From assembly GCA_964467905.1 (NCBI GenBank), contig CAYXSY010000003.1, positions 30,159 through 94,158 of the forward strand: a stretch of DNA of 64,000 nt, written 5' to 3'. Below the pieces are notes generated by a model. That model did no database searches, was not told where the DNA came from, and worked only from the letters and a program-made list of their open reading frames with translations. Within the stretch, counting starts at the first letter, position 1. The number at the start of each line of letters is the position of its first letter. Both the position numbers and the translations under genes were made by a program. The DNA comes from an uncultured Planctomycetales bacterium. GTDB taxonomy: Bacteria; Omnitrophota; Gorgyraeia; Gygaellales; Profunditerraquicolaceae. Positions 5,807 through 53,504 of this stretch are shown one piece after another.

Positions 5807-6813
5807 TAATGATTAACCTGGGTTCGTTGAGGCTAAATTCAAAATTTATACTGGCTCCTATGGCCGGGGTAAGCGATTTGCCGTTTCGTATGCTTAACAG
5901 GGAATTCGGGGCGGAGCTTGCATTTGTCGAGATGATTAATTGTCGTTCGGTAAGTTATAACAGCAAAAAAACCAGGCAAATGCTTTCGACGCAGGATAAT
6001 GATAGGCCATTGGGTATCCAAATATTGGGCTCTGAGCCGAAATTTATAAGAAAGGCCTTGGACGTAATAAACACCTATGATTTTCAGCTTTTGGATTTTA
6101 ATGCCGCATGTCCAGCCAAGAAGGTTGTGCGCAGAAATGAAGGCGCTTCGCTTTTAAGAGATCCCAAGAAGCTTGATGAGATACTAAAGATAGTAGTAAG
6201 ATATTCTAAGGTTCCGGTTACTATCAAGATACGTTCGGGATGGGATAGAAATTCAATAAATGCCCCTGAAATTGCCAAGTTAGCTCAAGATTGTGGGGTT
6301 AGCGCTGTATTCTTGCATGGACGCACGAGGATGGATGGCTATAAGGGCGGGGTTGATTACGAAGTTATACGCAAAACAAAGGAATCAATTCATATTCCCC
6401 TTGTAGCTGGCGGAGATCTGATGTCTGTTGCTTCAGCGGTTAAGATGTTTGAGTATACAGGATGCGATCTCTTAAATATAGCAAGAGGCGCTTTGGGGAA
6501 TCCGTGGATTTTTAGAGAGTTAGAGTCTTTATCTTCATATCTACCATCGCAAAGTTATCCTTCAAGCGATGAAATATGCCGGGTTATGCGCAAGCATTTA
6601 GATATGTGCGTTAATTTTTATGGCGAAAAAATAGGCGTAGTTAATTTCCGTAAATTCTTTGGTTGGTATACTAAAGGTTTTAGAAGGGTGCGTTCTTTAA
6701 GAGAGAAGTCTTCTGTAGCTAAGACTAAAGAAGCCATGTTTTCTTTAATAGATGAGTGCGTTATGAATGAAGCAACAAAAAAACCCCATCTTCCTGGGGT
6801 TTTTTGTAGGTGA
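5803..6813 (+). CDS. dusB: tRNA-dihydrouridine synthase
   Basis: 336 aa. Motifs LAPMAGVSDLPFR and D.N..CP. TIM-barrel Dus family pattern. Confidence 0.8.
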   Translation: MIMINLGSLRLNSKFILAPMAGVSDLPFRMLNREFGAELAFVEMINCRSVSYNSKKTRQMLSTQDNDRPLGIQILGSEPKFIRKALDVINTYDFQLLDFNAACPAKKVVRRNEGASLLRDPKKLDEILKIVVRYSKVPVTIKIRSGWDRNSINAPEIAKLAQDCGVSAVFLHGRTRMDGYKGGVDYEVIRKTKESIHIPLVAGGDLMSVASAVKMFEYTGCDLLNIARGALGNPWIFRELESLSSYLPSQSYPSSDEICRVMRKHLDMCVNFYGEKIGVVNFRKFFGWYTKGFRRVRSLREKSSVAKTKEAMFSLIDECVMNEATKKPHLPGVFCR

Positions 6814-12287: not shown

Positions 12288-12395
12288 TCAATTTTGAATA
12301 GGCCAGCCGAAGATTTTGATTTTTTATCTTGCCAAACATCCTATCTCATAGTAATATATATTACTTAGGTCTCTTTTGTCTATAAAAGCTTGCCA

Positions 12396-12434
12396 GGGCC
12401 CATAGCTCAGCGGTAGAGCAGGTGACTCATAATC
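12396..12434 (+). repeat. attL: 39-nt exact copy of the 5' part of tRNA-Met (acceptor 5' strand through the anticodon loop)
   Basis: GGGCCCATAGCTCAGCGGTAGAGCAGGTGACTCATAATC is identical to 22441-22479. The sequence then diverges, with no T-arm. Confidence 0.75.
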
Positions 12435-12553
12435 GAAAAAGGATGGTTTTCATAACTCCTTGGAATTCTTGCAGCTATGGCTTTGCTCGTCGAGATAAGG
12501 CATTTTCGCACTTCTTCTTATCTGGATGAAGTTGTGCGAATTTGGATGCTGAC

Positions 12554-12574
12554 TGGACACTATTTGGACACCAG
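12554..12574 (+). repeat. 21-bp repeat TGGACACTATTTGGACACCAG (itself a doublet of TGGACAC); second copy at 22346-22366
   Basis: Exact 21-mer located ~120 bp inside attL and ~75 bp inside attR (within the int 3' end). Candidate integrase arm-type sites. Confidence 0.5.
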
Positions 12575-12585
12575 TCGGTCTTGAA

Positions 12586-12807
12586 ATGGGGCCAAAAATA
12601 TGGTATATTTTAGGTGGACAAAAGACGATTTCCGTTGAACAGAAACGCTTACTTAAGGTACTTTCCGCTTTCCCTGTCAGCCCAACCTCAAAGAATAATA
12701 GAGGCATCAAAAAAACAGAATGGGTTAAAATCGACAAGAAGACTTATGATGCCTGTATCGATCCTACCGATTACCGCACTCCCAAGATAACAGAAAACCT
12801 GAAATAA
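12586..12807 (+). CDS. hypothetical protein (element-encoded)
   Basis: 73-aa ORF with no recognisable motif. Confidence 0.3.
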   Translation: MGPKIWYILGGQKTISVEQKRLLKVLSAFPVSPTSKNNRGIKKTEWVKIDKKTYDACIDPTDYRTPKITENLK

Positions 12808-12814
12808 TAGTCCT

Positions 12815-12848
12815 TGACAATATACATACTATACAGTATACTATGTAT
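12815..12848 (+). promoter_or_regulatory. promoter (TTGACA-16-TATACT) overlapped by a 13+1+13 near-perfect palindrome (ATACATACTATAC A GTATACTATGTAT) = candidate operator
   Basis: -35 hexamer at 12815-12820. Palindrome at 12822-12848 has one mismatch. Lies directly upstream of the MerR-like gene RBS AAGGAGGT. Confidence 0.5.
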
Positions 12849-12867
12849 AGTTAAGGAGGTGATTGCC

Positions 12868-13242
12868 TTGTGCCCATTACGTAATTTTTTAACATCAGCC
12901 GATGTGGCAAAAGCGCTTAAGGTTCCGAAAACTAATTTATTTCTTTGGGAAGAAAAGGGCAGGATTCCGAAAGCACGCAGAGATCCTGTAAGTGGATACC
13001 GCGTATACACAGAAGAAGATATCATTAAGATAAAAAAAGTAATAGAAGGAGGGGATATGGGAGGGTTGACTAGCTGGGTTAAAGCAGGTGAAGTTAGTTC
13101 TGAGGCATGGAAGTATATTAAATCTAGGTTCCCGGGTAAGTATTCAAAGTTGAAGAGAGATATTAAAGCTTGGGGAATCGATAAGGTTAAAATTGAATTT
13201 GCTCAAGGAGTAAGGCCGGTACAGATATCAATATCTTTATAA
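12868..13242 (+). CDS. MerR-family HTH transcriptional regulator (excisionase/Xis-like fold)
   Basis: HTH segment LTSADVAKALKVPKTNLFLWEEKGRIPKARRDPVSGYRVYTEEDIIKIKKV matches the MerR N-domain pattern. A TTG start 7 nt after the RBS AAGGAGGT is preferred over the annotated ATG at 12814. Confidence 0.55.
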   Translation: MCPLRNFLTSADVAKALKVPKTNLFLWEEKGRIPKARRDPVSGYRVYTEEDIIKIKKVIEGGDMGGLTSWVKAGEVSSEAWKYIKSRFPGKYSKLKRDIKAWGIDKVKIEFAQGVRPVQISISL

Positions 13243-13286
13243 ATGCTTCAACAAAAGCGCCAAGAAAATAGCATAAAGGAGGCAGA

Positions 13287-13487
13287 ATGAAGAATAGTAA
13301 TGCAGAAACACGATTAAAGAAACGTAACGAAAAAATTAAGAGGAGCGCATTAGCCGATTTGAATACTCTGAGAAAGTTATCAGAGGAGAAAGGGGTGTCT
13401 CTTTCTGATGCAATAGAGAAAGCAGGATCTGTTGAGCAGGCAATTCTTAATCTTTTGGACACGGGCGACCCGGGCAAGCGGGGGTAA
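13287..13487 (+). CDS. small hypothetical protein (element-encoded)
   Basis: 66-aa ORF preceded by an AAGGAGG RBS. Charged and helical. Confidence 0.35.
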   Translation: MKNSNAETRLKKRNEKIKRSALADLNTLRKLSEEKGVSLSDAIEKAGSVEQAILNLLDTGDPGKRG

Positions 13488-13652
13488 GTAAAGTTTTTGA
13501 GAATTGACATTTTTTAAAAAAAACTTGACAGAAATCCTTTTTTATGGTAGTTTAAAGACGATGCTAAAATTAGCATTAGTGGCAGAGGGATGAGCAGGCC
13601 CTAATCAAAAAGCTACTACCTCTTAAAACAAAGCATTTGCAACAGGACCTTA

Positions 13653-13682
13653 AGAGAGATCGATAAGAGATCTCTCTTTTTT
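13653..13682 (+). terminator. intrinsic terminator (GAGAGATC-loop-GATCTCTC + T-run)
   Basis: Perfect 8-bp stem followed by TTTTTT. Confidence 0.6.
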
Positions 13683-13688
13683 ATTTTC

Positions 13689-13721
13689 GGCGAGTTCTCA
13701 AAAAGGAACTCGCCTTTTTTT
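13689..13721 (+). terminator. second tandem intrinsic terminator (GGCGAGTTC-loop-GAACTCGCC + T7)
   Basis: Perfect 9-bp stem followed by TTTTTTT. Confidence 0.65.
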
Positions 13722-13726
13722 GTGCT

Positions 13727-13945
13727 ATGAGAATAAATGAAAAAACAATAAAACAGGTTCTACGAGACCGAGGACTAAGGCAGCAGGATTTTGCTAAAGC
13801 AATTGCTATCAGTCCGGAGTTTTTTTCACGGTTAGTTAAAAACCGCGTGACGTTGACGTTTAATATGGGCTTGAAAATTTCGCAAGCTCTAGCTGTCAAG
13901 CCGGATAAGATTATCCAAACTAAAGACGGAGGAATGCATGTTTGA
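13727..13945 (+). CDS. XRE/Cro-family HTH regulator
   Basis: 72 aa. HTH segment QQDFAKAIAISPEFFSRLVKNRVTLTFNMGLKISQAL. Confidence 0.6.
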   Translation: MRINEKTIKQVLRDRGLRQQDFAKAIAISPEFFSRLVKNRVTLTFNMGLKISQALAVKPDKIIQTKDGGMHV

Positions 13946-15461
13946 TGCAGGGGCGGTGGTAGCAAAACTCACTTTAGACAGATCTGATTTTGAAAAATCT
14001 CTCCAATCTATCACCAATGCGACAGCGCGCATTGGGAAAAGCTTCCAGAAGGTTGGGCAGGATATCCAGCAAGTCTCGAGACAACTATCCGTTGTCGCGC
14101 GTAACACAGCTTTCTTCGGTACAGCAATAACAGGAGGTTTGGTCGCAGCGTTTAAGAGTGCAGAGAAATATTCTAACTCCGTGCGTCAGGAAATGGAGCG
14201 GCTTAATAATATTTTTATCGCCTTTAGGGTTTCTATCGCAGAAGCGCTTCTGCCGGTTATGCATAGGTTAAGCAATGTTCTGGCAGACCTGTTGAATAGG
14301 TGGAATGCGCTTAGTCCTCAGATGAGGGAAGCAATCCTGCGTATGACTTTTATGTCTGGGGTAGTTCTATTATTGGGAGGCACAATCGCGGGGGTGGTAT
14401 TAAAGATTTGGCAGATGATCGGGGCATTAGGGGGGCTGTTAGGTAGGTTGTTGACTTTTGCAAGTGTCCATCCGGTGATCTTGGGGATTACGGCTGGAAT
14501 TATCGCTTTAGGATATGCTATCACAAAATTTAATTTAGCGGTGCCGATACTTAATGCCGTTGAAATAGCTACTACTTCTCTGGCGATTGCCATAAATCAG
14601 CTGATGATCTCGGTCCTAAGTGCTGTCAAGATAGGCCTTCAATCGGTTGATTATCTTGGAATTATTACTGGGAAGATTCAGAAATATGCTATCGATACCA
14701 TGAATACCCTGCAAGAATTAAATACCCAATATTGGGTGCAGATACAGAATATATTTAAAAACGGTAAAGGCATTTTTGCTCAAGGTTATAATGATTTAAA
14801 GGAAACGATAGATAGCATAGTAGGTTTATTCAGGGATTTGGGCAATATTGAGATCAGGATCCCGCAGATCATGGAGAGCATAAGGACATTCAGTGAGGGG
14901 TTGCGGGATGGCCTTAATAAGTCGATACGGTCCCTTATGGACTGGGGAACGACTGCGGAGAATATCGTTGTAGGAGTGGTGAATAATATGCGGAATATGT
15001 TTAGCGATTTCTTTTATAACGTGTTTAAGGGTCAGCTTGATGATGCGATGGATGTTTTCGCGGAATTCGGTAATTATATCCTTAAAACAATAGCGCAGAT
15101 AATTGCTGATATCATTGTGTTGAAGATAGCCGCTGGTTTTGGCAATCTCTTCGCTCCGACGGCTAATATCGCTAATATGGGAAAAGTCCTCATTGCGCCT
15201 GCAGGATATGCCGGTTTTGCCGAAGGGACAGATCGTGTCCCTTATACCGGAATGTATAAGGTTCACGAAGGAGAAAAGGTAATTCCAAAATACGACGCAT
15301 CGAAAGAGCAGGTAATTCAGCTAGAGATTGTTAATTTATTTGGCGATGATATTGTTGCGGCTTCTTTGCAAAGAAGAAAGTCGGCAGCTGCTATTATAAA
15401 TGTGGTGAATCAAGATTCATTACGCAATGGCATTATTCGAAGAGAGGTAAAACACAGATGA
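13938..15461 (+). CDS. phage tail tape-measure-like protein (short, 507 aa)
   Basis: N-terminal tape-measure-like region (IGKSFQKVGQDIQQVS...TAITGGLVAAFKSAEKYSNSVRQEME). Central hydrophobic/glycine-rich segments are typical of TMPs. Confidence 0.5.
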   Translation: MFDAGAVVAKLTLDRSDFEKSLQSITNATARIGKSFQKVGQDIQQVSRQLSVVARNTAFFGTAITGGLVAAFKSAEKYSNSVRQEMERLNNIFIAFRVSIAEALLPVMHRLSNVLADLLNRWNALSPQMREAILRMTFMSGVVLLLGGTIAGVVLKIWQMIGALGGLLGRLLTFASVHPVILGITAGIIALGYAITKFNLAVPILNAVEIATTSLAIAINQLMISVLSAVKIGLQSVDYLGIITGKIQKYAIDTMNTLQELNTQYWVQIQNIFKNGKGIFAQGYNDLKETIDSIVGLFRDLGNIEIRIPQIMESIRTFSEGLRDGLNKSIRSLMDWGTTAENIVVGVVNNMRNMFSDFFYNVFKGQLDDAMDVFAEFGNYILKTIAQIIADIIVLKIAAGFGNLFAPTANIANMGKVLIAPAGYAGFAEGTDRVPYTGMYKVHEGEKVIPKYDASKEQVIQLEIVNLFGDDIVAASLQRRKSAAAIINVVNQDSLRNGIIRREVKHR

Positions 15462-15799
15462 GTGAATTCTTCCCCGGTATTATAGAGCCGAAAGAGATAG
15501 TCCTGCCCGATTTTAAGAATCACGAGGAGGTTGCGCGATTTATTATCGATTTGCTTAATAAGGATCGCGAAGGATTAAATCAGGCAATGAAGCTGCTCTA
15601 TGAAGGTTATTATAAGCAATTTTATACGATAGTCGCTTTTTTGACTAATTTGTGTCCGTTGGTTGATGTTAGTTTCCAGAAGATTTGGAAAGAATCAGAG
15701 GATTATGTTGAGAAGAATTGGGATTATCTAAAGCAGCTAGAGCTTGATGCGCGCGAGATGAAGAAAAAAGTAAATGACCTTTTTAAAGGCAAACAATGA
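15458..15799 (+). CDS. hypothetical protein (element-encoded)
   Basis: 113-aa ORF, translationally coupled (ATGA overlap). Confidence 0.35.
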   Translation: MSEFFPGIIEPKEIVLPDFKNHEEVARFIIDLLNKDREGLNQAMKLLYEGYYKQFYTIVAFLTNLCPLVDVSFQKIWKESEDYVEKNWDYLKQLELDAREMKKKVNDLFKGKQ

Positions 15800-16248
15800 G
15801 AACTGAATTCAAAATTGATTTTAGCGATTTTCAGAGGCGCATGCGGAAGTTGTCCAGAGAGGTTATGCCTGAAGCTGCCGAAGCCGGTGTGGCCCGCGCC
15901 GGCCTGCAGCTGCTTAACGATTCTGTTATGGAGCGCCCTACAGTTCCGATAAGGGAAGGTTGGTTAAGGGGTTCTGGAAGCGTGTTTGTTCAGAATAGTC
16001 TTATAGCAGTGTCTAGCTACGGAAAGCCAGGTAAAGCGAATTTGGATCTCTCGGAATACATCCCCCCGGATATGATAGTGGCTTATGTGGGGTTTAATAC
16101 GCCGTATGCCGCCCGTTTGCACGAGTCAATGGATTTTCATTTCCGGGAGCCGAGTTCAGGGCCCAAATTTCTCGAAAGCAAATTATTGCGGAACAAAGAG
16201 GCTTATGGCGAGATTATCGCGAATACAATTAAGGAGAGGCTAAGTTAA
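15796..16248 (+). CDS. HK97-gp10-like head-tail/tail-component protein (tentative)
   Basis: 150 aa. Pattern FKIDFSDF...PEAAEAGVARAGLQLLNDSVMERPTVPIREGWLRGSG resembles the gp10-family signature (F.ID..., then PV.TG.L..S). Confidence 0.4.
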   Translation: MRTEFKIDFSDFQRRMRKLSREVMPEAAEAGVARAGLQLLNDSVMERPTVPIREGWLRGSGSVFVQNSLIAVSSYGKPGKANLDLSEYIPPDMIVAYVGFNTPYAARLHESMDFHFREPSSGPKFLESKLLRNKEAYGEIIANTIKERLS

Positions 16249-16373
16249 GGGAGGATATAAGAATAAACGTGTCCGATATTGATTTAATGAACATCTTGAG
16301 AAAACGCCAAGGGCTTACAATCCAAAAGAATTGCTTTGGTCTTAGGCGTTCCTAAAAAGGTTATTTTTACAGA

Positions 16374-16649
16374 ATGATTGAAACGTTTGCGTTGACACAT
16401 ATTGAGGACACATTGATCCAGTTTGAAACCGGATTTGATTATGATCTCTGGACTACAAAGCAGATTCGGAAATATACCGGCTTGAAATATCAATTTCTCC
16501 ACTCACTTTGGAAACGTGGGGTCATCAGTTATCCTGAGCGGAAAATAGGCGGGAATTTAGTTTGGACGCCGATAGAAGTATACGAGATGTTAATGCAGGT
16601 AAAAAACTACATTAGAAAGAAAATCGGTCACTATGGATATTACAGTTAA
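16374..16649 (+). CDS. hypothetical protein, possible DNA-binding (element-encoded)
   Basis: 91-aa ORF immediately upstream of, and overlapping, the replication gene. Confidence 0.3.
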   Translation: MIETFALTHIEDTLIQFETGFDYDLWTTKQIRKYTGLKYQFLHSLWKRGVISYPERKIGGNLVWTPIEVYEMLMQVKNYIRKKIGHYGYYS

Positions 16650-18270
16650 GCATTTGCAGGAGTTTGAAAAGTCAGGGATCTCCGCTGAATTTGCCGCTAA
16701 ATATTTCCGTTCCCTTACCCAGGAAGAGGCCTCAAAAAAATATAGCTCACCATGTCCCGGATGGGAAGTGCTATATCCGCAATCCAATTACTCGAAATTT
16801 AAACCCGATAATCCAAGAAACAAGTCGCAGAAATACATCAACCCTAAAGGTGTGCCTCTTGATTTGCTAATTACTTTTAAAGCCCAGGAAGCCCTTAATA
16901 ACATAAATATATCGATATTTCTCATTGAGGGGGAAAAAAAAACAGTTTCTGCTGAGGAAAATTTTGGATGGGCCGCAATCGGACTGCCGGGAGTAAATGG
17001 CCAGCCGGAAGACAAACTTGCTTCTTTGAATTTTGCCGGGCGCATTTGCTATATTTGCTTTGACGCGGATAAGAATAAAAAACAATACAAGAAATCTCCT
17101 GTTATCGATGCAGAAGCGCGCCTGGCCCGGGCACTCACTTTGAAGGGCGCTAAAGTCAAGATTATCAACCTTGAAAAGAGCTTCGGCAATGGTCTTGATG
17201 ATCAAATTGTAAAGTTTAAAGCCGATGGAAACCTTAATGACCTGAAAAACCGGCTCTTGAAACAAGCTGTTGATTTCGCTCCTGAGCCCTTGCCTTTATC
17301 CTTAACAGAATTTTTGAAGAAAGATATCCCACCTATTGAATATTACGTGCAGGGCATCTTGCAAAAAGGCGGCAGGACCATGATCAGCGCTCCGACAAAT
17401 ATCGGAAAATCATTCTTCCTGCAAAACTTGGCTTTGGCCGTTGCATCCGGGAACGCAGATTTTCTCGGGAAGTTTAAGGTCAGTCCTGCTTCAGTGCTTT
17501 ATCTGGATATGGAAATGGGCGAGCCAGCGCTTAAAGAACGCTTTACGCGCATGATAGGGGAGAATACAGCTGATAACCTTTTTGTACAATATGCCTGCGG
17601 GCTAGATCTGCTTGAAAATGAGTCCCAGTTCAAAGTTGAATTTTGGCTCCAGAATCGTAGGCCGGATATTTTAATTATCGATTCCATTGGTGATGCTTGG
17701 ACTGGAGACGAAAACGACAAGCAGGAAGTCGCTAAGCTCGAGAAATATCTTAATTATATTAAGGACAAGTTTAAAATATCTATTATATTCTCACATCATT
17801 GGCGTAAGGCCTCAAAAGAGAATAACCGGGGCCCGGAAATGGCCGCAGGAAGCTATAAAATCGGCGCCTGGGTTGAAAATCAGCTATCATTGCAAGGCGC
17901 TGATTGTAAGAGCGTAACTCTTACCTGGGAGAAAGCGAGAAACGCACTTAAGCCGCCACCTATTCTGATCGGCTTGGATCCGGATACTCTTTGTTTCAAG
18001 TACATAGGGGACTATGAATCAAAATTCAGTGAGGATATGCTGGAAAAGGTTTTTGTGGCTTATGGCCAGGAAGAAGCTCCGCTTTCAAAGCTTGTGGAAT
18101 TAGCGGACGAAATGGCAGAACGCAAGGAATTGCCTGTTAAAGGCCGGAGTATAAGGGGATATTTCATGGAGAAGACCCAGAGATTTGAGGTTTGGCAGAA
18201 AGAAAACAAACCTAAAGCGCCCTGGTTTGTCAAAAGAAAAGGATTAAATACCGAAAATGAGCTTTTCTAA
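16633..18270 (+). CDS. primase-helicase-type replication protein (Toprim-like N-domain + RecA-like P-loop domain, AAA_25/RepA-like)
   Basis: Toprim-like segment FLIEGEKKTVSAEENFGWAAIGLPGVNG...CFDAD. P-loop ISAPTNIGKSFFLQNLALAVASG. Walker B LYLDMEMG. Confidence 0.6.
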   Translation: MDITVKHLQEFEKSGISAEFAAKYFRSLTQEEASKKYSSPCPGWEVLYPQSNYSKFKPDNPRNKSQKYINPKGVPLDLLITFKAQEALNNINISIFLIEGEKKTVSAEENFGWAAIGLPGVNGQPEDKLASLNFAGRICYICFDADKNKKQYKKSPVIDAEARLARALTLKGAKVKIINLEKSFGNGLDDQIVKFKADGNLNDLKNRLLKQAVDFAPEPLPLSLTEFLKKDIPPIEYYVQGILQKGGRTMISAPTNIGKSFFLQNLALAVASGNADFLGKFKVSPASVLYLDMEMGEPALKERFTRMIGENTADNLFVQYACGLDLLENESQFKVEFWLQNRRPDILIIDSIGDAWTGDENDKQEVAKLEKYLNYIKDKFKISIIFSHHWRKASKENNRGPEMAAGSYKIGAWVENQLSLQGADCKSVTLTWEKARNALKPPPILIGLDPDTLCFKYIGDYESKFSEDMLEKVFVAYGQEEAPLSKLVELADEMAERKELPVKGRSIRGYFMEKTQRFEVWQKENKPKAPWFVKRKGLNTENELF

Positions 18271-18495
18271 CATTGCAAAAGGGATATATGTAAGGGTTTT
18301 AAGTATAGAGAGGGCTATCTTTGAAAGCATTGCAAAAGGGATATCTTCAAAGATTCCCCTGCAAGCCTCCGAAAGCGCTCTTAAAGCAGCCGCCAAAGGC
18401 GGCTTTAGCGCTAAGGAACTGATTGCATTGAACGATTGCAAAGTATATATAATGCAATGCAAGGGTTTTGCAATACCTTTGCAATGCTTGGGGCT
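18271..18495 (+). repeat. iteron-like array: 17-bp exact direct repeat CATTGCAAAAGGGATAT (18271-18287 and 18328-18344) plus at least 5 further TTGCAA/TGCAAT-core copies and a GC-rich palindrome; candidate replication origin
   Basis: Read directly from sequence. Lies immediately 3' of the primase-helicase gene. The annotated ORFs across it are low-complexity. Confidence 0.55.
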
Positions 18496-18712
18496 ACCCA
18501 GGGAAGACAAAATGATACGCTTGTTGCAACAGGGGGGAAGACAATGTTTATCTTTGACCCGGTTTTGGAGTACTCAAGGCACTCGGGAAATATGCGGTTA
18601 ATGAAAGTGAGTTTGTGAGTATGTACTCAATAATGCAAGGGATGTCTCGTCGATGAAGAAAAGTGAAATGACCAAGTAAGTTAACATAATACTCACTACA
18701 GGAAGTTGCACT

Positions 18713-20317
18713 ATGGGAAGATATAGACCAAAGGAATCTTATCTCGGTAGAACTAGAGAGAAGCGGGCTGCACAATTAGCCAATTTGCGCTTTGGACCGA
18801 TTAGGCGTAGTAAGTCAGGACCTATACCATCATCGCCCCTGGGAGCGCCCGAAAACAACCCTTTTGACCCTATTTACAAGGATGATCCCATCCGCTTTAT
18901 TGAGGATCATTTCTACCTTACTCCGGAACGCTGTTTGATTGTATTAGACGACTGGCAAAAACAGATACTTAGGCAGATCTTTGAGCGTGACCCTACGACC
19001 GGGCTAAGACGGTATACTATGGCCGTTGTCTCAGCGCCTAAAAAAACAGGTAAGACTTCGTTGGCTGCTGCGATTATCTTGTGGTTTCTGGTGCATGGCG
19101 AGCTTGAGGGTGAAATTATTATGGCTGCGTACTCCGGGAATCAATCGACCTATGTCGTGTATAAGAAGCTATGCCGTAGTATCCGGATGAATAGGCATTT
19201 ATTAAAAGACCTCGCAATCAACAAGGATATTGTCGAGAATAAAAGGACAGCAACAACGGCGCGTGTTGTATCGGTAAGCTCTAGCGTCGCGGGTCTAAAC
19301 CCTAACCTCGTCTTGTTTGATGAGCTTCACGCGTACAGGGAAGTAGATAGCAATATGTATAGGGACTTCTTTGATGAGTTGACTGTTTCACCGACTCGCA
19401 AAGAGCCACTTTGCCTTATCACTTCATACGCCGGCACGGGCCAGGATACGCTTTTTTATGAGATATACGAGAAAGGCCTTGCCGGCACGGATCCGAAGAT
19501 GTTTTTCTTTTGGAGTCATGATCCGTTTTTATCCCCGCGCATGACGAAAGAGATACTTGAGGATAAGCGCAATAAACATCATCCGAATACTTTCGCCCGT
19601 TTGTTTGAGAATCGCTGGACCCAAGGCGAAAAGCAGTTTATCGATATGGTCGATTATGACAAGTGCGTTGATTCTTCGCACGCTCCGCTATTTGAGGACT
19701 TTCACAAAGAACTCGCGGTTTATTTAGGCATTGATATCGGCGTTAAGGATGATTGCAGCGCTGTCGTCGCCGTCGCAAAACAGGTTGAGAAGATCGTGCT
19801 CATTCAACACCGCATTTGGCGGCCACGCCCTAATGATCCAGTGATCATCGAGGACGTGGAGAATTATATCTATGATCTACATTGTAAATTTCGCGTTGCT
19901 CAGGCGCTTTTTGACCCTTCGCAATGCCGGGAAGCAGAGCAAAGGCTAAAGCAAAGAGGCGTTAATATGGTGGAGTGCATCCAGGCGCAAGGCCCGAACA
20001 TCGAAGCGGCGCAGAATCTATATCACCTTCTCCGTAGCGGGAAGCTGAAACTTTACAAGGCAGATGATCTGCGCCAGCATCTGCAGCATGCGGTTGTCCG
20101 TGAATCTGCGCGCGGTTTTCAGATAGAGAAGAAGTCGCCGTCCAAAAAGGTTGACGCTGCGGTGGCCCTGGCTATGGCTTGTCTTGCCGTGATCCAGGAC
20201 GCTTCAGTTGAGGCCGAGGTAAAGGTGGCAGATTGGAATTGGAAAGGTGACGAATCATCCTCGCCGGGGAGGGGAGGAGTTTTGAGCGGAGATTGGCTGC
20301 TTGCAGATGACAGATAA
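18713..20317 (+). CDS. phage terminase large subunit
   Basis: 534 aa. N-terminal ATPase with Walker A-like VVSAPKKTGKTSLAA and Walker B LVLFDELHAY. C-terminal nuclease-like region with acidic residues (GIDIGVKDD). Confidence 0.6.
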   Translation: MGRYRPKESYLGRTREKRAAQLANLRFGPIRRSKSGPIPSSPLGAPENNPFDPIYKDDPIRFIEDHFYLTPERCLIVLDDWQKQILRQIFERDPTTGLRRYTMAVVSAPKKTGKTSLAAAIILWFLVHGELEGEIIMAAYSGNQSTYVVYKKLCRSIRMNRHLLKDLAINKDIVENKRTATTARVVSVSSSVAGLNPNLVLFDELHAYREVDSNMYRDFFDELTVSPTRKEPLCLITSYAGTGQDTLFYEIYEKGLAGTDPKMFFFWSHDPFLSPRMTKEILEDKRNKHHPNTFARLFENRWTQGEKQFIDMVDYDKCVDSSHAPLFEDFHKELAVYLGIDIGVKDDCSAVVAVAKQVEKIVLIQHRIWRPRPNDPVIIEDVENYIYDLHCKFRVAQALFDPSQCREAEQRLKQRGVNMVECIQAQGPNIEAAQNLYHLLRSGKLKLYKADDLRQHLQHAVVRESARGFQIEKKSPSKKVDAAVALAMACLAVIQDASVEAEVKVADWNWKGDESSSPGRGGVLSGDWLLADDR

Positions 20318-20418
20318 ATTTGGCGCAGGGGGTCTTCTTAAAATATAGGTAGTCTTGTGACCGAGCTATCTATATCTACCCCTGCGCTATAAACAGGTCA
20401 AGAAAAGGAGATGGGAAA

Positions 20419-20808
20419 ATGGATCAAGATAACAAGAAATTGTTTCAGGAATTAGAATCAAGTAATAATGAGGGGTTACTCGCTACATGGATCAAAAAGT
20501 TAGAGGACAAATTGCATACGGTGCAAAAGATAAGGCGGCGGAGAGAGTTCGATAAGTCGCCTGAGGGCATACGTTTCAATAACCAGTTAAAAGAATTGGA
20601 AAAAATAAACGCGGATAATTTGAGGAGATGGCAGGTTATACACGAAGCAAGGCTTTTGGAAGCAAAGCGCAAGCTCGTCCTACAGATCGAAGCGGATCGC
20701 CTGCTAAAAGAGAGCAAAATTGACGATAATGATCCGAGGCTCGCTTCTATTTTATATGAAATAGATAATTTGCATGAGGTAATTGCCGATGCGTTTATTG
20801 GGAGGTAG
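20419..20808 (+). CDS. hypothetical coiled-coil protein (element-encoded)
   Basis: 129-aa ORF, charged and helical. Confidence 0.35.
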   Translation: MDQDNKKLFQELESSNNEGLLATWIKKLEDKLHTVQKIRRRREFDKSPEGIRFNNQLKELEKINADNLRRWQVIHEARLLEAKRKLVLQIEADRLLKESKIDDNDPRLASILYEIDNLHEVIADAFIGR

Positions 20809-20810
20809 AA

Positions 20811-21119
20811 ATGAAAGATTTAACATTGCCAGAAAATAACGATCTGATACCGACAGACGGTATAAAGATGCCTGAAGCGGACAGAGATAACGATCTGATA
20901 CCGGGAAACGATTCGATATTGAAGCAGCTTGGGGACAATGATATCGTTAGGATCGGGGATTTTATCATTCAGAGATGCTTCAAGCACGGAGAAGGACAGA
21001 CAGGGGGAGAATATTTTAGGATTCAATCGCAGGATTCCCATGAGATCAGGGTTGAATTGGACGAATTAGCCGATATCAAGACCGAAGATGGAATTAAATC
21101 CTTATTTGAAAAAGAATAA
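20811..21119 (+). CDS. hypothetical acidic protein (element-encoded)
   Basis: 102-aa ORF, translationally coupled. Confidence 0.35.
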   Translation: MKDLTLPENNDLIPTDGIKMPEADRDNDLIPGNDSILKQLGDNDIVRIGDFIIQRCFKHGEGQTGGEYFRIQSQDSHEIRVELDELADIKTEDGIKSLFEKE

Positions 21120-21121
21120 CT

Positions 21122-21304
21122 ATGGAAAAACGTTTCATCAGCCCATTTGAGTTATCACAATATCTAGGCCTTAAGCCAGATACCATTTATGCGTGGATCT
21201 GGAAAAAGAAAATCCCTTATCATAAATTTGGTCGTTTGGTTAAATTCGACGTGCGCAAAATCGATAAGTGGGCTGAGGAACATTTGGTTAAAGAAATGAG
21301 TTGA
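21122..21304 (+). CDS. AlpA/Xis-family excisionase-type HTH protein
   Basis: 60 aa. FISPFELSQYLGLKPDTIYAWIWKKKIPYHKFGRLVKFD matches the AlpA/phage excisionase pattern. Overlaps the int start. Confidence 0.6.
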   Translation: MEKRFISPFELSQYLGLKPDTIYAWIWKKKIPYHKFGRLVKFDVRKIDKWAEEHLVKEMS

Positions 21305-22416
21305 AAAATAAGCACTTACAAGTTAAACTATATATGCAAAACAGGAGGCTGCGCAGGGTGGGCATATACTTAAAGGGCGAAGACTGGTATTTGGATTATT
21401 ATGTCAATGGCCGCCGTAAAAGAGAAAAAGTAGGTCCTTCCAAAAAGCTTGCCGAAATAGCCTTTAAGAAACGCAAAGTCGAGATAGCAGAAGGCAAATT
21501 CCTGGATATTAAAAAAGAATACAGGGTTAAGTTTGACGATTTAGCCTCAATGTATCTCGAGCTGCACGCCAAGCCGAATAAAAAATCCTGGCACTCTGAC
21601 GACGATACCATAAAGCAGCTCAAGAAGTATTTTGGCGGCCGGTATCTTTCAGAGATTACGCCCTTGTTCGTTGACAAATTCAAGATGGACCGCGCTAAAA
21701 AAGTCTCTCCGGCCACAGTTAACCGTAATCTTGCTTGTCTGAAATGCATGTTTAATAAAGCAATCATGTGGGGCAAGGCAAGTGTTAATCCGGTAACGCA
21801 AGTTCGGCTCTTTAAGGAAGATAATAAACGGATCCGTTATCTTGAGAAAGAGGAGATCGTAAAACTCTTAGCGAATTGCCGCGGCCATTTAAAGGCAATC
21901 GTAATTGTTGCCATAAATACCGGCATGCGCAAAAGCGAGATCCTGGGCCTTAAGTGGCATGATTGCGATTTTCGGCGCAGTATAATATATTTATATAATA
22001 CCAAGAATGGAGAGAAGCGGGAAGTGCCAATGAATAACCAGGTCAGATCTACTTTGATTAAAGTCCGCAAGCACCCAGAGAGTCCTTATATCTTCTGCAA
22101 TAGGAAGGGCATACCGATAAAAGATATCAAAAAATCTTTCTTTACAGCGCTCGATAAAGCGGGTATAATACAGTTTCATTTTCATGATTTACGGCATACT
22201 TTTGCTTCGCATTTGGTAATGTCCGGAGTCGATCTTAATACAGTTAGGGAGTTAATGGGTCACAAGTCGCTGGAAATGACGCTCAGGTATAGCCACTTAT
22301 CCCCGGATCATAAGAAGCGTGCGGTGGATGTTTTAGGGCAGCGAATGGACACTATTTGGACACCAGAGCCTATTACTCAAAAGGCACCAGAAAAGCCCAT
22401 CTCCGTAACTAATTGA
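21301..22416 (+). CDS. int: tyrosine site-specific integrase
   Basis: 371 aa. N-terminal SAM-like domain. Catalytic-domain residues R (GMRKSEI), HDLRHTF, and LMGHKSLEMTLRYSHL with the catalytic Tyr. Ends 24 nt before tRNA-Met. Confidence 0.85.
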   Translation: MKNKHLQVKLYMQNRRLRRVGIYLKGEDWYLDYYVNGRRKREKVGPSKKLAEIAFKKRKVEIAEGKFLDIKKEYRVKFDDLASMYLELHAKPNKKSWHSDDDTIKQLKKYFGGRYLSEITPLFVDKFKMDRAKKVSPATVNRNLACLKCMFNKAIMWGKASVNPVTQVRLFKEDNKRIRYLEKEEIVKLLANCRGHLKAIVIVAINTGMRKSEILGLKWHDCDFRRSIIYLYNTKNGEKREVPMNNQVRSTLIKVRKHPESPYIFCNRKGIPIKDIKKSFFTALDKAGIIQFHFHDLRHTFASHLVMSGVDLNTVRELMGHKSLEMTLRYSHLSPDHKKRAVDVLGQRMDTIWTPEPITQKAPEKPISVTN

Positions 22417-22440
22417 TAGCGTTAATATTGTGATATCTTA

Positions 22441-22512
22441 GGGCCCATAGCTCAGCGGTAGAGCAGGTGACTCATAATCACTTGGTCGGAGGTCCGATCC
22501 CTTCTGGGCCCA
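22441..22512 (+). tRNA. tRNA-Met (anticodon CAT; elongator-type or tRNA-Ile2-type, cannot be distinguished by eye)
   Basis: Manual cloverleaf: acceptor GGGCCCA/TGGGCCC, D-arm GCTC-AGCGGTA-GAGC, anticodon arm GGTGA-CTCATAA-TCACT, T-arm GGAGG-TCCGATC-CCTTC, discriminator A. No encoded CCA. Confidence 0.8.
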
Positions 22513-22582: not shown

Positions 22583-22656
22583 GGGCATTTAGCTCAGTTG
22601 GTTAGAGCGCTACATTCACATTGTAGAGGCCAGAGGTTCAAGTCCTCTAATGCCCA
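22583..22656 (+). tRNA. tRNA-Val (anticodon CAC)
   Basis: Manual cloverleaf: acceptor GGGCATT/AATGCCC, D-arm GCTC-AGTTGGTTA-GAGC, anticodon arm CTACA-TTCACAT-TGTAG, T-arm AGAGG-TTCAAGT-CCTCT. Confidence 0.8.
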
Positions 22657-52565: not shown

Positions 52566-53001
52566 AACACAGATAATAATACGCTTGGTTTTGTCTGTAT
52601 TTCTAGGTGGGTTAATAGGCTTTGAACGCCAGATACACCGCAGAACCGCCGGTTTTCGTACGCATATCCTGGTATCGCTTGGTTCCTGCCTTATAATGTT
52701 GACATCTTTATATGTTTTTGATATATATAGCAGTAAGGTTGATTTAGACCCTACGCGTATTGCCGCTGGGGTTATCACCGGAATAGGGTTTCTTGGCGCA
52801 GGAGCAATTATAAGAGATTCGCAGGGTATAATAGGGCTAACCACTGCTGCAAGTCTTTGGGTCGTAGCAGGTATAGGTCTGGCAATAGGGTGCGGATTTT
52901 ATACTGCAGGGATATTTACAACAGCACTTGCTTTAATATCGCTTTTTTTCTTAAGAAGAGTTGAGGAAAAAGTTATAAATAAGAAAGGAGGGGTAAGCTA
53001 A
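52555..53001 (+). CDS. mgtC: MgtC/SapB-family membrane protein
   Basis: 148 aa. Motifs GFERQ..RRTAGFRTHILVSLGS and GIGFLGAG. Confidence 0.7.
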   Translation: MLNETQIIIRLVLSVFLGGLIGFERQIHRRTAGFRTHILVSLGSCLIMLTSLYVFDIYSSKVDLDPTRIAAGVITGIGFLGAGAIIRDSQGIIGLTTAASLWVVAGIGLAIGCGFYTAGIFTTALALISLFFLRRVEEKVINKKGGVS

Positions 53002-53504
53002 TGGCTTTTAAGAAAAATACAGAAGAGAAAATCCTCGATGTAGATGCTGCTATGCAGGGAACATTAAGTTTCAAAGACGCGGTAAATTTACGTATTAACG
53101 GTAAATTTGAAGGAAAGCTTGATACAAAAGGGAATTTAACTGTGGGGCCGAGTGCGCAGGTATATGCGGATATGATTGGAGACAACATTATAATCGGAGG
53201 TAAGGTTAAAGGAAAGATAATAGCTAAGGAAAGACTTACCCTTCTTCCTACGGCAGTCGTAGAAGGCGACATATATCCCACGAGATTAAATATTGCCGAA
53301 GGGGCAATTTTAGAAGGCAGATGCATAATGCTCCATGATTTCCTAAATGCCGAACAATTAGCCAGATATCTGGAGGTAGATTTAAATTCTATCATGGAAT
53401 GGGCTAATTCCGGTAAAGTCCCGGGTTTTAAAGAGGGAGACGACTGGAAGTTCGAAAGAAAAGCTATTGATTCCTGGGTTTCAACAGGCAAAGTTAGCAA
53501 ATAA
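53001..53504 (+). CDS. bactofilin (beta-helical polymer-forming cytoskeletal protein) fused to a C-terminal excisionase-family HTH DNA-binding domain
   Basis: Residues ~20-115 carry bactofilin repeats (G.F.G.L...GNLTVG...IGGKVKGKIIAKERL...VEGDI...L.I.EGAILEG). C-terminus LNAEQLARYLEVDLNSIMEWANSGKVPGFKEGDDWKFERKAIDSWV matches the excisionase/MerR-like HTH pattern. Confidence 0.65.
   Translation: MAFKKNTEEKILDVDAAMQGTLSFKDAVNLRINGKFEGKLDTKGNLTVGPSAQVYADMIGDNIIIGGKVKGKIIAKERLTLLPTAVVEGDIYPTRLNIAEGAILEGRCIMLHDFLNAEQLARYLEVDLNSIMEWANSGKVPGFKEGDDWKFERKAIDSWVSTGKVSK

Follow-up and report, generated by a model that had tools for sequence, protein, structure and literature searches.

Phage satellites are known from a few cultivated phyla, and until 2025 they were thought to take the tails of their helpers unmodified. 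Two systems serve as precedents for satellites that encode a tape-measure protein (TMP). The PLEs of Vibrio cholerae, satellites of phage ICP1, are small integrated elements with their own integrase and replicon, and they encode a TMP, given as 20% and as 19-41% identical to the helper's, which is built into chimeric tails and is needed for efficient transduction (10.1101/2025.01.29.635557). The EPIPs of Mycolicibacterium, described in a 2025 preprint, are satellites of about 11 kb that lack tail tube and lysis genes but carry a TMP, neck proteins and an integrase (PMC12822802). Capsid-forming PICIs (cf-PICIs) and MulchRoom/MiniFlayer are the only described satellites that encode a terminase large subunit (TerL), and their TerL clades are separate from the phage clades. 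Classical PICIs/SaPIs, PICMIs and VEIMEs are elements of 5-15 kb with int and an excisionase-type HTH, a replicase followed directly by an iteron origin, a modular replicon and fixed integration sites, whereas P4-like satellites are about 11 kb, integrate in a tRNA gene, carry a primase-helicase replicase and depend on a helper for all shell proteins.

In the current study, we characterized a block of 10,045 bp inserted in a tRNA-Met gene within a 64-kb stretch of DNA (the window). An earlier note had described this block, from the sequence alone, as an integrative element of about 10 kb with phage-satellite-like gene content, and our analysis confirms that observation. The block is bracketed by an exact 40-bp repeat at 12395-12434 and 22440-22479, one base longer than the 39 bp previously noted, and an exact match of 40 nt is far beyond chance in 64 kb. 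The repeat covers position -1 to position 39 of tRNA-Met(CAT), and thus ends just past the anticodon loop. The right copy (attR core) lies inside the intact tRNA-Met at 22441-22512, so that the element supplies the 5' half of the tRNA, while the left copy (attL) is a displaced 5' fragment that is followed by non-tRNA sequence but still lies behind the native promoter-like site at 12329-12357. This geometry is atypical, since it is usually the 3' part of the tRNA that is duplicated, but duplication of the 5' part was also found in three related elements (L011, L010 and L009, introduced below). A tyrosine integrase of 371 aa is encoded at 21301-22416 (Phage_integrase, 134 bits against a cut-off of 27), preceded at 21122-21304 by a 60-aa HTH_17 protein that passes the TIGR01764 excisionase model (44.2 against 28.8) but gave no Phage_AlpA hit, and is not specifically AlpA (the note had labelled it AlpA/Xis-like). 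A candidate left arm-type site at 12551-12574, GACTGGACACTATTTGGACACCAG, contains TGGACAC twice, and a right candidate (22343-22366) lies in the 3' end of the integrase gene. TGGACAC occurs 9 times against 2.2 expected, a count reached in 0 of 100 shuffles, and the same motif pair sits at the same relative positions in L011, whose integrase is only 51% identical.

All genes of the element are on the forward strand. At the left end, a promoter (TTGACA-17-TATACT, 12814-12842) is overlapped by a near-palindrome, an operator candidate, within 12814-12850, and an identical hexamer pair lies upstream of the MerR homologue in the related element L042. A MerR-family HTH protein of 124 aa follows at 12868-13242, 47% identical to the L042 homologue; it may be a regulator, or possibly a DNA-binding protein for excision or packaging. 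The TTG at 12814, earlier taken as its start codon, is the -35 hexamer, and the gene starts at 12868. Downstream are a 66-aa ORF (13287-13487; 41% identical in L009) and, at 13504-13714, two TTGACA hexamers, a leader of about 130 nt and two strong intrinsic terminators (13652-13678 and 13689-13714), ending 12 nt before an XRE/Cro-type HTH regulator of 72 aa (13727-13945). The same layout occurs in L042, and the region (fold z = -2.96) is a candidate for antitermination-controlled entry to the long operon. A replicase of 545 aa (16633-18270), described in the note as a Toprim and P-loop primase-helicase, combines DUF3854 (Toprim-like, 5e-16) with an AAA_25 RecA-fold ATPase (7e-27), and only 8 homologues were found in a search of 5.8 billion sequences. 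Upstream of it lies a 91-aa ORF (16374-16649) with a homologue in L009. An iteron array with an AT-rich patch, the putative origin, occupies 18262-18492; six TTGCAA-core sites lie in 18271-18486 and give 10 of the window's 42 matches to the pattern, accompanied by two 17-nt repeats. An ORF over the iterons (18257-18601) has no homologue and is probably not a gene.

Only three virion-related genes are recognizable. The first is TerL (18713-20317, 534 aa, HK97-like), in which the ATPase and nuclease domains (PF03354 and PF20441) score 42.1 against 23.7 bits and 34.9 against 24 bits, with phrog_9 at 3e-61. Residues of Walker A (K110-K114), Walker B (D203/E204) and the nuclease (D341/D401/D481) are invariant in 13 homologues, and the family profile hits PDB 6z6d at 8.7e-19. 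The second is a TMP of 507 aa (13938-15461), which matched phrog_1272 at 8e-14; 13 of its 16 PHROG hits are annotated as TMP, although Pfam Tape_meas_lam_C fell below its cut-off (20.0 against 23). It is homologous over its full length to phage TMPs in the canonical slot, at 30% identity (E 4e-60) to that of phage L041, which lies between the chaperones and gpM/L/K/J, and at 42% to that of L119. The third (15796-16248, 150 aa) is a putative tail-completion protein (TCP) of the HK97 gp10/lambda gpZ class, with a match to phrog_5 at 6.6e-8 and no Pfam hit for this copy; the class also includes SPP1 gp16.1 and 80alpha gp51, and its marks are a family HMM match, a position between the head-tail joining protein and the tail terminator, and a helix, beta-hairpin loop, helix fold. 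A 113-aa ORF between TMP and TCP (15458-15799) is unique to this element. Two further ORFans, a 129-aa coiled-coil protein (o129, 20419-20808) and a 102-aa protein (o102, 20811-21119), are conserved in all five family members, and only 14 clusters matched o102 among 1.84 billion representative proteins. No capsid, portal, protease, tube or TerS was detected in any ORF by Pfam, PHROGs or NCBIfam.

The element belongs to a small family with its closest relatives in Omnitrophota genomes, the host phylum being inferred from relatives alone. Four other elements of about 10-11 kb (TerL 45-57%, TCP 62-63% and TMP 30-40% identical) keep the minimal set in almost the same order, except that L009 lacks TMP and TCP, so these two genes are not universal in the family. 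L010, L011 and L042 retain o129, o102, TMP, TCP, a replicase, TerL, a recombinase and, in L010 and L011, the HTH_17 excisionase, in elements of 9.5-11 kb. The replicase slot is filled by four unrelated types (DUF3854/AAA_25, DnaB_N/AAA_25, lambda-O-like with internal iterons, and D5-type primase), and integration is at tRNA-Met, at tRNA-Phe or, in one case, through a large serine recombinase. The TMP and TCP also link the family to a large group of lambda-like siphophages. In dozens of phage contigs, some of 41-47 kb, homologues of TCP (50-62%) and TMP (30-42%, full length) sit in the order adaptor, TCP, terminator, tube, chaperones, TMP, gpM/L/K/J. Element TMPs are 507-521 aa and the nearest phage TMPs 496-565 aa. 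Element TCPs form their own clade in 63 of 100 bootstraps, while element TMPs are interleaved with phage TMPs in all 100 replicates.

Comparison with the described satellites shows both similarities and differences. PLEs pair the TMP with a tail chaperone and a baseplate hub, have no TerL or TCP, remodel capsids with TcaP and exploit a myovirus; they have no sequence relationship to our element, and o129 and o102 are not chaperone-like. EPIPs have TerS rather than TerL, an adaptor, a stopper, a scaffold and a serine integrase, infect as free particles and induce their helper, and no TCP or replicase is reported for them. The cf-PICIs and MulchRoom/MiniFlayer encode the whole head (capsid, protease, portal, connectors, HNH, TerS) and no tail genes, and steal only tails; of this set our element has only TerL, together with two tail-related genes, and is thus close to the inverse, with no head shell but tail-lumen proteins. 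PICIs/SaPIs, PICMIs and VEIMEs redirect packaging with TerS, Ppi or Cpm proteins and rely on the helper's TerL, whereas TerL is the packaging gene here; PICIs have divergently transcribed master regulators (a repressor/activator pair next to int), which are absent from our element, as are AlpA and TerS or capsid-remodelling homologues. P4 uses the helper's terminase on a shared cos site and integrates in the 3' part of the tRNA, and no homologues of sid, psu, delta or the alpha protein were found by PHROG or Pfam searches. The earlier note's interpretation is partly supported: the element, its borders and nearly all gene calls are confirmed, and the satellite reading is strengthened by the homology of the TMP and the gp10-like protein to tail genes of a real siphophage family, but the element does not belong to the P4-like, PICI or cf-PICI classes that it named, and an integrase, AlpA, primase and origin backbone with a few morphogenesis genes misses the specific logic proposed below.

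With moderate confidence, we interpret the element as an integrated member of a small, previously undescribed family of helper-dependent phage satellites of about 10 kb. What the sequence establishes is the duplicated 5' half of tRNA-Met, the integrase and excisionase-type HTH with TGGACAC repeats on both sides of the core, the replicase followed by iterons, the MerR and XRE regulators, and exactly three recognizable virion-related genes; excision, replication, packaging, transfer and helper dependence are inferred. Of the general marks of a phage satellite, the element thus has, in silico, a small genome without a complete set of virion genes and its own integration/excision module and replicon, whereas for dependence on a helper phage there is a candidate helper family, identified through TMP and TCP homology. 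In this view, after excision and replication from its own origin, the element's TerL would cut its DNA and package it into capsids made by a co-resident lambda-like siphophage, and its TCP and TMP would replace the phage's copies inside phage-made tail tubes, giving chimeric tails. In phage 80alpha, TCP caps the packaged DNA end and binds the TMP, at its N-termini in our model. The element would therefore supply every protein that touches its genome end and leads it into the next cell, leaving the capsid, portal, connectors, terminator, tube, tip and fibres to the helper. The long operon would have no promoter of its own downstream of the leader with two terminators, and its expression may therefore depend on antitermination, possibly triggered by the helper, while integration would replace the 5' half of the tRNA. 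Some findings weigh against this model. A Logan contig of 10,065 bp proved to be a de Bruijn break at the repeat rather than a circle, no helper prophage lies in the 64-kb window, and IMG/VR holds no member of the family. No TerS, HNH or cos/pac site was identified, although HK97-type TerL normally needs partners. Moreover, the element's TerL clade was not found in the candidate helper phages: shared lengths of contigs appeared only for elements, and the 432- and 485-aa head-region proteins of the phages are unrelated to TerL, so TerL would have to dock on a foreign portal. On a broader and more tentative reading, somewhat less likely than not, this would be a new class of phage satellite, the first reported for Omnitrophota-type hosts, bringing its own packaging motor and a tail-lumen cartridge that cut, cap and escort the DNA end, taking the entire outer shell from a lambda-like helper, with a late operon that may be opened by helper-driven antitermination. 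The TCP and TMP pair recurs in a second, unrelated family of about 9 kb (L101), which on this reading suggests that stealing the tube while replacing the core is a general satellite strategy.

Other explanations are less likely. One is that the element is an integrative, self-replicating island whose TerL, TMP and TCP act mainly as interference or defence factors that poison assembly or packaging of an infecting siphophage, without transfer of the island in virions. The TMP and TCP are diverged paralogues of phage proteins and could act as dominant-negative subunits, relatives with the same replicase, HTH_17 and integrase backbone carry defence-like cargo and no TerL (MazG-like, Schlafen-type helicase, trypsin, and AAA_21+RloB), and known satellites do interfere with their helpers. 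However, interference would not require the ATPase and nuclease residues that TerL keeps across the family, the narrow size range of 9.5-11 kb fits a packaging constraint, PADLOC finds no defence protein in the element, and in PLEs the TMP serves transduction. Equally unlikely is mobilization by vesicles, a conjugative helper or natural transformation, with TerL, TMP and TCP repurposed or carried along as relics. The absence of a detected helper, cos/pac site or TerS favors this possibility, as does the occurrence of the TerL clade in small islands of other phyla with varied content (L013, L023, L027), but no relaxase, oriT-type or coupling-protein domain appears in any ORF, and the three virion genes form a functionally coherent trio conserved under divergence of 36-63% identity. 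A decayed prophage, the alternative raised in the earlier note, is now very unlikely. Although the element contains only fragments of a morphogenesis module, with all genes on one strand as in many prophage remnants, the five elements have intact genes, similar sizes and different replicons and integration modules, and independent decay would not converge on this minimal set; in addition, the gene order (TMP and TCP adjacent, TerL after the replicase) is not a subset of the phage order, the element TCPs form a distinct clade, and at 36-63% identity the relatives are not recent copies of one remnant. Finally, an autonomous miniature tailed virus with capsid, portal and tube proteins too divergent to recognize is the least likely explanation. 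Even though the head proteins of the related phages also escape Pfam and PHROGs, so that detection is weak in this lineage, the five unassigned ORFs of 66-129 aa are too few and too small for a capsid protein, portal, tube, terminator and tail tip, and none resembles the phage neck or tail proteins in profile comparison or PDB chains by sequence.

The element-supplied 5' tRNA half is an unusual att geometry worth noting for island-finding software, and the o102 and o129 ORFans and the satellite TCP clade are concrete markers for finding such elements and their helpers in metagenomes. If our interpretation is correct, this family would extend satellites to an uncultivated lineage of ultra-small bacteria and would be an example of a satellite whose only packaging gene is TerL. 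It would also show that the TMP/TCP tail core is a recurrent target of satellite innovation, an idea that work on PLEs and on the 80alpha neck has only just made testable.

ARAGORN and Rfam searches identified tRNA-Met(CAT) at 22441-22512 and tRNA-Val at 22583-22656. An exact 40-bp direct repeat was found at 12395-12434 and 22440-22479, covering the base before the tRNA plus tRNA positions 1-39 and ending just past the anticodon loop, whereas the left copy runs into non-tRNA sequence. The intact tRNA is therefore located at the right end, directly after the integrase gene and on the same strand, and the displaced piece is the 5' fragment, which still sits behind the native promoter-like site at 12329-12357. 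A strong promoter-like site, TTTACA-17-TATAAT (11 of 12), lies at 22141-22169 inside the 3' part of int, 272 nt upstream of the reconstituted tRNA-Met; although this is a consensus match only, it could drive the tRNA now that its native promoter is left at attL. The element is 10,045 bp long and is flanked by dnaG and rpoD on the left and by a CT398-like protein, RNase H and YebC on the right. The identical sequence occurs in two Logan assemblies, SRR15237810 and SRR15237811, and a contig of 10,065 bp (L001) initially looked like an excised circle. However, its ends lie 30 nt (k-1) inside the 40-bp repeat copies, indicating an assembly graph break and not a circle. A Logan contig carrying a dnaG more than 90% identical (P0199) also exists. 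TGGACAC occurs 9 times in the window against 2.2 expected, and two tandem pairs flank the core, at 12551-12574 and 22343-22366.

All genes of the element are on the + strand. The first encodes a 124-aa MerR-family protein (12868-13242); the TTG at 12814 is the -35 hexamer of a TTGACA-17-TATACT promoter overlapped by a near-palindrome. It is followed by a 66-aa ORF (o66, 13287-13487), a leader (13504-13714) with two strong terminators (13652-13678 and 13689-13714), and an XRE-type regulator (13727-13945). A 507-aa tape-measure protein (TMP) is encoded at 13938-15461, with 16 PHROG hits of which 13 are TMP families (best 8e-14), although the Pfam match is below cut-off. A 113-aa ORFan without hits (o113, 15458-15799) separates it from a 150-aa gp10-like protein (15796-16248; phrog_5 at 6.6e-8), the putative tail-completion protein (TCP). 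Downstream lie a 91-aa ORF (o91, 16374-16649), a DUF3854+AAA_25 replicase (16633-18270), six TTGCAA-core iterons with an AT-rich patch (18271-18486) and the terminase large subunit, TerL (18713-20317), for which both Pfam domains are above cut-off and phrog_9 matches at 3e-61. The remaining genes are the ORFans o129 (20419-20808) and o102 (20811-21119), conserved in the family only, an excisionase-family HTH (21122-21304; TIGR01764, 44.2 against 28.8 bits) and a tyrosine integrase (21301-22416; 134 bits). A second HTH_17-like coding stretch, 32% identical to the excisionase-type HTH, lies far outside the element at 53328-53477, within ORF 53001-53504. No capsid, portal, protease, tube, terminator, TerS, HNH, lysis or defence family was detected in the element.

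Searches of PHROGs, Pfam, NCBIfam, PADLOC and PDB sequences gave no hits for o129, o102, o113, o91 and o66, although o66 and o91 have homologues in the related locus L009. Since o129 and o102 precede the TMP in the related elements L010 and L011, we asked whether they could be tail assembly chaperones, but hhalign comparison with phage TAC1, TAC2, adaptor, terminator, gpM and tube profiles gave probabilities below 1%, and this identity was rejected. An AF2 model of o102 from a single sequence had a pLDDT of 62. We also looked for a conserved cos/pac motif upstream of TerL. Only a 14-nt AAGTTAACATAATA is identical between the window (18678-18691) and the related element L042 (about 25-30 nt upstream of TerL), with a 10-nt core also present in L009. 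It looks like a -10 region, and is a candidate conserved promoter element or regulatory site rather than an identified cos site.

Comparison with relatives indicates a conserved family. The replicase has only 8 homologues (E <= 1e-5) in the 5.8 billion-sequence collection that was searched, whereas TerL has closer relatives (41-61%), several of them named as Omnitrophota or Velamenicoccus MAG proteins. The host phylum, Omnitrophota, is inferred only from the names attached to such relatives; the flanks of the element share no informative genes with the loci compared. In L010, the order is o129, o102, TMP (36%), TCP (62%), a DnaB_N/AAA_25 helicase, TerL (45%), HTH_17, MerR and Int (50%), followed by tRNA-Phe. 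L011 is integrated in a 221-kb Omnitrophota MAG contig and carries MerR, o129, o102, TMP (40%), TCP (63%), a lambda-O-like initiator with four internal iterons, TerL (47%), HTH_17 and Int (51%); it is bounded by a 42-bp repeat of the 5' part of tRNA-Phe and is 10,964 bp long. L042 encodes MerR (47%), XRE, TMP (30%), TCP (62.5%), o129, o102, a D5-type primase, TerL (45%) and a large serine recombinase. L009 contains o66, o129, o102, o91, a DUF3854/D5 primase, TerL (57%), HTH_17 and Int (62%) between 5' tRNA-Met-like repeats 10,130 bp apart, but has no TMP or TCP. Three copies of the 5' tRNA-Met-like core are present in L009 (41-66, 1627-1652 and 11757-11782), and the extra, degenerate left copy encloses a HigB/HigA-like toxin-antitoxin pair, suggesting a remnant of a tandem or earlier insertion at the same site.

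The replicase slot and the integration module are swapped freely, while the virion genes (except TMP and TCP in L009), the two ORFans and the size are kept. The arm motif pair recurs at the same relative positions in L011. In L010, a copy of the integrase arm-like motif, TGGACACCAGGATGATCAC, lies at 5812-5830, about 90 bp upstream of TerL rather than near the left end, and it is possible that this contig starts inside the element. TerL Walker and nuclease residues are invariant in 13 homologues. Independent prophage decay cannot produce this pattern. The family is rare: o102 has 14 clusters among 1.84 billion representatives, and IMG/VR holds no member, since a scan with TerL found no element-type locus and o129 has no relative there, the o102 alignment being too variable to scan with. 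The closest relatives of the window replicase (49% and 42%) lie in islands without TerL, TMP or TCP, namely L005 (1-13589) and L003 (1-9740). L005 shares the window's replicase, HTH_17 and Int backbone (Int 60% identical), whereas in L003 no integrase lies within the contig. Their cargo looks like defence genes, including MazG-like, a Schlafen-type helicase with an S24 peptidase, trypsin-like proteases, HNH, and AAA_21+RloB.

The gp10-like protein has more than 120 homologues. In 80 metagenome loci, all but two sit in a conserved siphophage module with the order Ad1-like, MuF minor head protein, adaptor, gp10-like, tail terminator (PF12691), Ig-type tube, two chaperone-size genes, TMP, gpM, gpL (PF05100), gpK (NlpC/P60) and a gpJ of 1,200-1,400 aa, in some cases on contigs of 41-47 kb. 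The window TMP aligns end to end with the TMPs of these phages, at 30% identity and E 4e-60 with that of phage locus L041 and at 42% with that of L119, and lengths match, being 507-521 aa in the elements and 496-565 aa in the nearest phages. In rough NJ trees, the element TCPs form a clade in 63 of 100 bootstraps, whereas the element TMPs are never monophyletic and interleave with phage TMPs. This observation suggests one old TCP capture and continuing TMP exchange or tracking of helpers. In contrast, the element's TerL clade was not seen in these phages, and no TerL of the helper-like phages was found in the 10-kb flanks, where the 432/485-aa and 682/838-aa head-region proteins are unrecognisable and unrelated to TerL. 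The nearest solved relative of the element's TerL is PDB 6z6d (8.7e-19), the HK97 large terminase. Several helper-like siphophages (L041, L093, L116 and an ENA contig of 46.9 kb) carry blocks of glycosyltransferase, radical-SAM, LicD, CTP-transferase and sialyltransferase-like genes inserted inside the head-neck module, and their large head-region proteins (432-574 aa and 682-838 aa) are invisible to Pfam and PHROGs. The MuF protein of L093 is 651 aa with a LAGLIDADG-like insert, possibly an intein.

Previous work has shown that all Vibrio PLEs encode their own TMP (about 20% identical to that of ICP1), which is incorporated into chimeric tails and whose deletion cuts transduction by 96-99.9% (10.1101/2025.01.29.635557). 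The 11-kb EPIPs also carry a TMP (PMC12822802). Keeping this in mind, the coherent reading is that the element supplies TerL, which would make and translocate the DNA end, TCP, which would cap it, and TMP, which would escort it into the cell, while capsid, portal, connectors, terminator, tube and tip would come from a helper of the phage family described here. The borders, gene content and family relationships are what the analysis shows, whereas excision, packaging, helper dependence and each of these steps are inferred from sequence and none is shown; no helper prophage was found in the 64-kb window. The XRE-to-Int operon starts 12 nt after the two terminators and has no promoter of its own. 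At 13504-13726 of the window, and at 3762-3952 of L042, a promoter-like -35 hexamer, a structured leader of about 100-130 nt and one or two strong intrinsic terminators lie directly upstream of the XRE-TMP operon. Since this layout is conserved in two family members, antitermination control is plausible, but weakly supported.

Among known systems, cf-PICIs and MulchRoom encode TerL with a full head set and no tail genes, and are nearly the inverse of this element. PICIs, PICMIs and VEIMEs encode TerS or remodelling proteins and use the helper's TerL, a different packaging strategy, while the characteristic genes of P4 are absent here. A satellite TMP is already known from PLEs and EPIPs, with which the element shares the idea but no homology, its TMP being accompanied by different partners. 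The element also shares with L009, L010 and L011 a 5'-half tRNA geometry that contrasts with the classical 3' geometry seen in loci L021, L023, L027 and L101.

Other small islands carry parts of the same gene set. In a contig binned as Syntrophorhabdus (L013, 9229-18376), TerL (41% to the window) is followed by a 424-aa major head protein (phrog_10, 7e-28), a DnaD-like initiator, ParB, a tyrosine integrase and a serine integrase. This locus looks like a small TerL+capsid island, reminiscent of cf-PICIs but without a visible portal. In one Proteobacteria MAG, two islands of about 12-13 kb beside tRNA-Arg or tRNA-Pro (L027, 6290-18793, and L023, 6801-18877) carry a primase-helicase, HTH_17, a TerL (30-32% to the window), a shared 240-270-aa ORFan and Int, with no capsid or portal hit among the ten ORFs scanned. 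L027 also carries a GHKL-ATPase plus TopoVI-A-Toprim pair that looks like defence cargo. It is possible that TerL-only islands are widespread. Finally, L101 (5484-14465) contains a second, unrelated small element of 8,897 bp, bounded by a repeat of about 51-60 bp of the 3' part of tRNA-Ala, which carries a weak TerS-like ORF (phrog_4102, 6e-5), three 32-nt iterons, a gp10-like TCP (49% to the window copy), a 538-aa TMP-like protein and a tyrosine integrase, but no TerL. The presence of this pair in an unrelated element suggests that TCP+TMP is recurrent satellite cargo.
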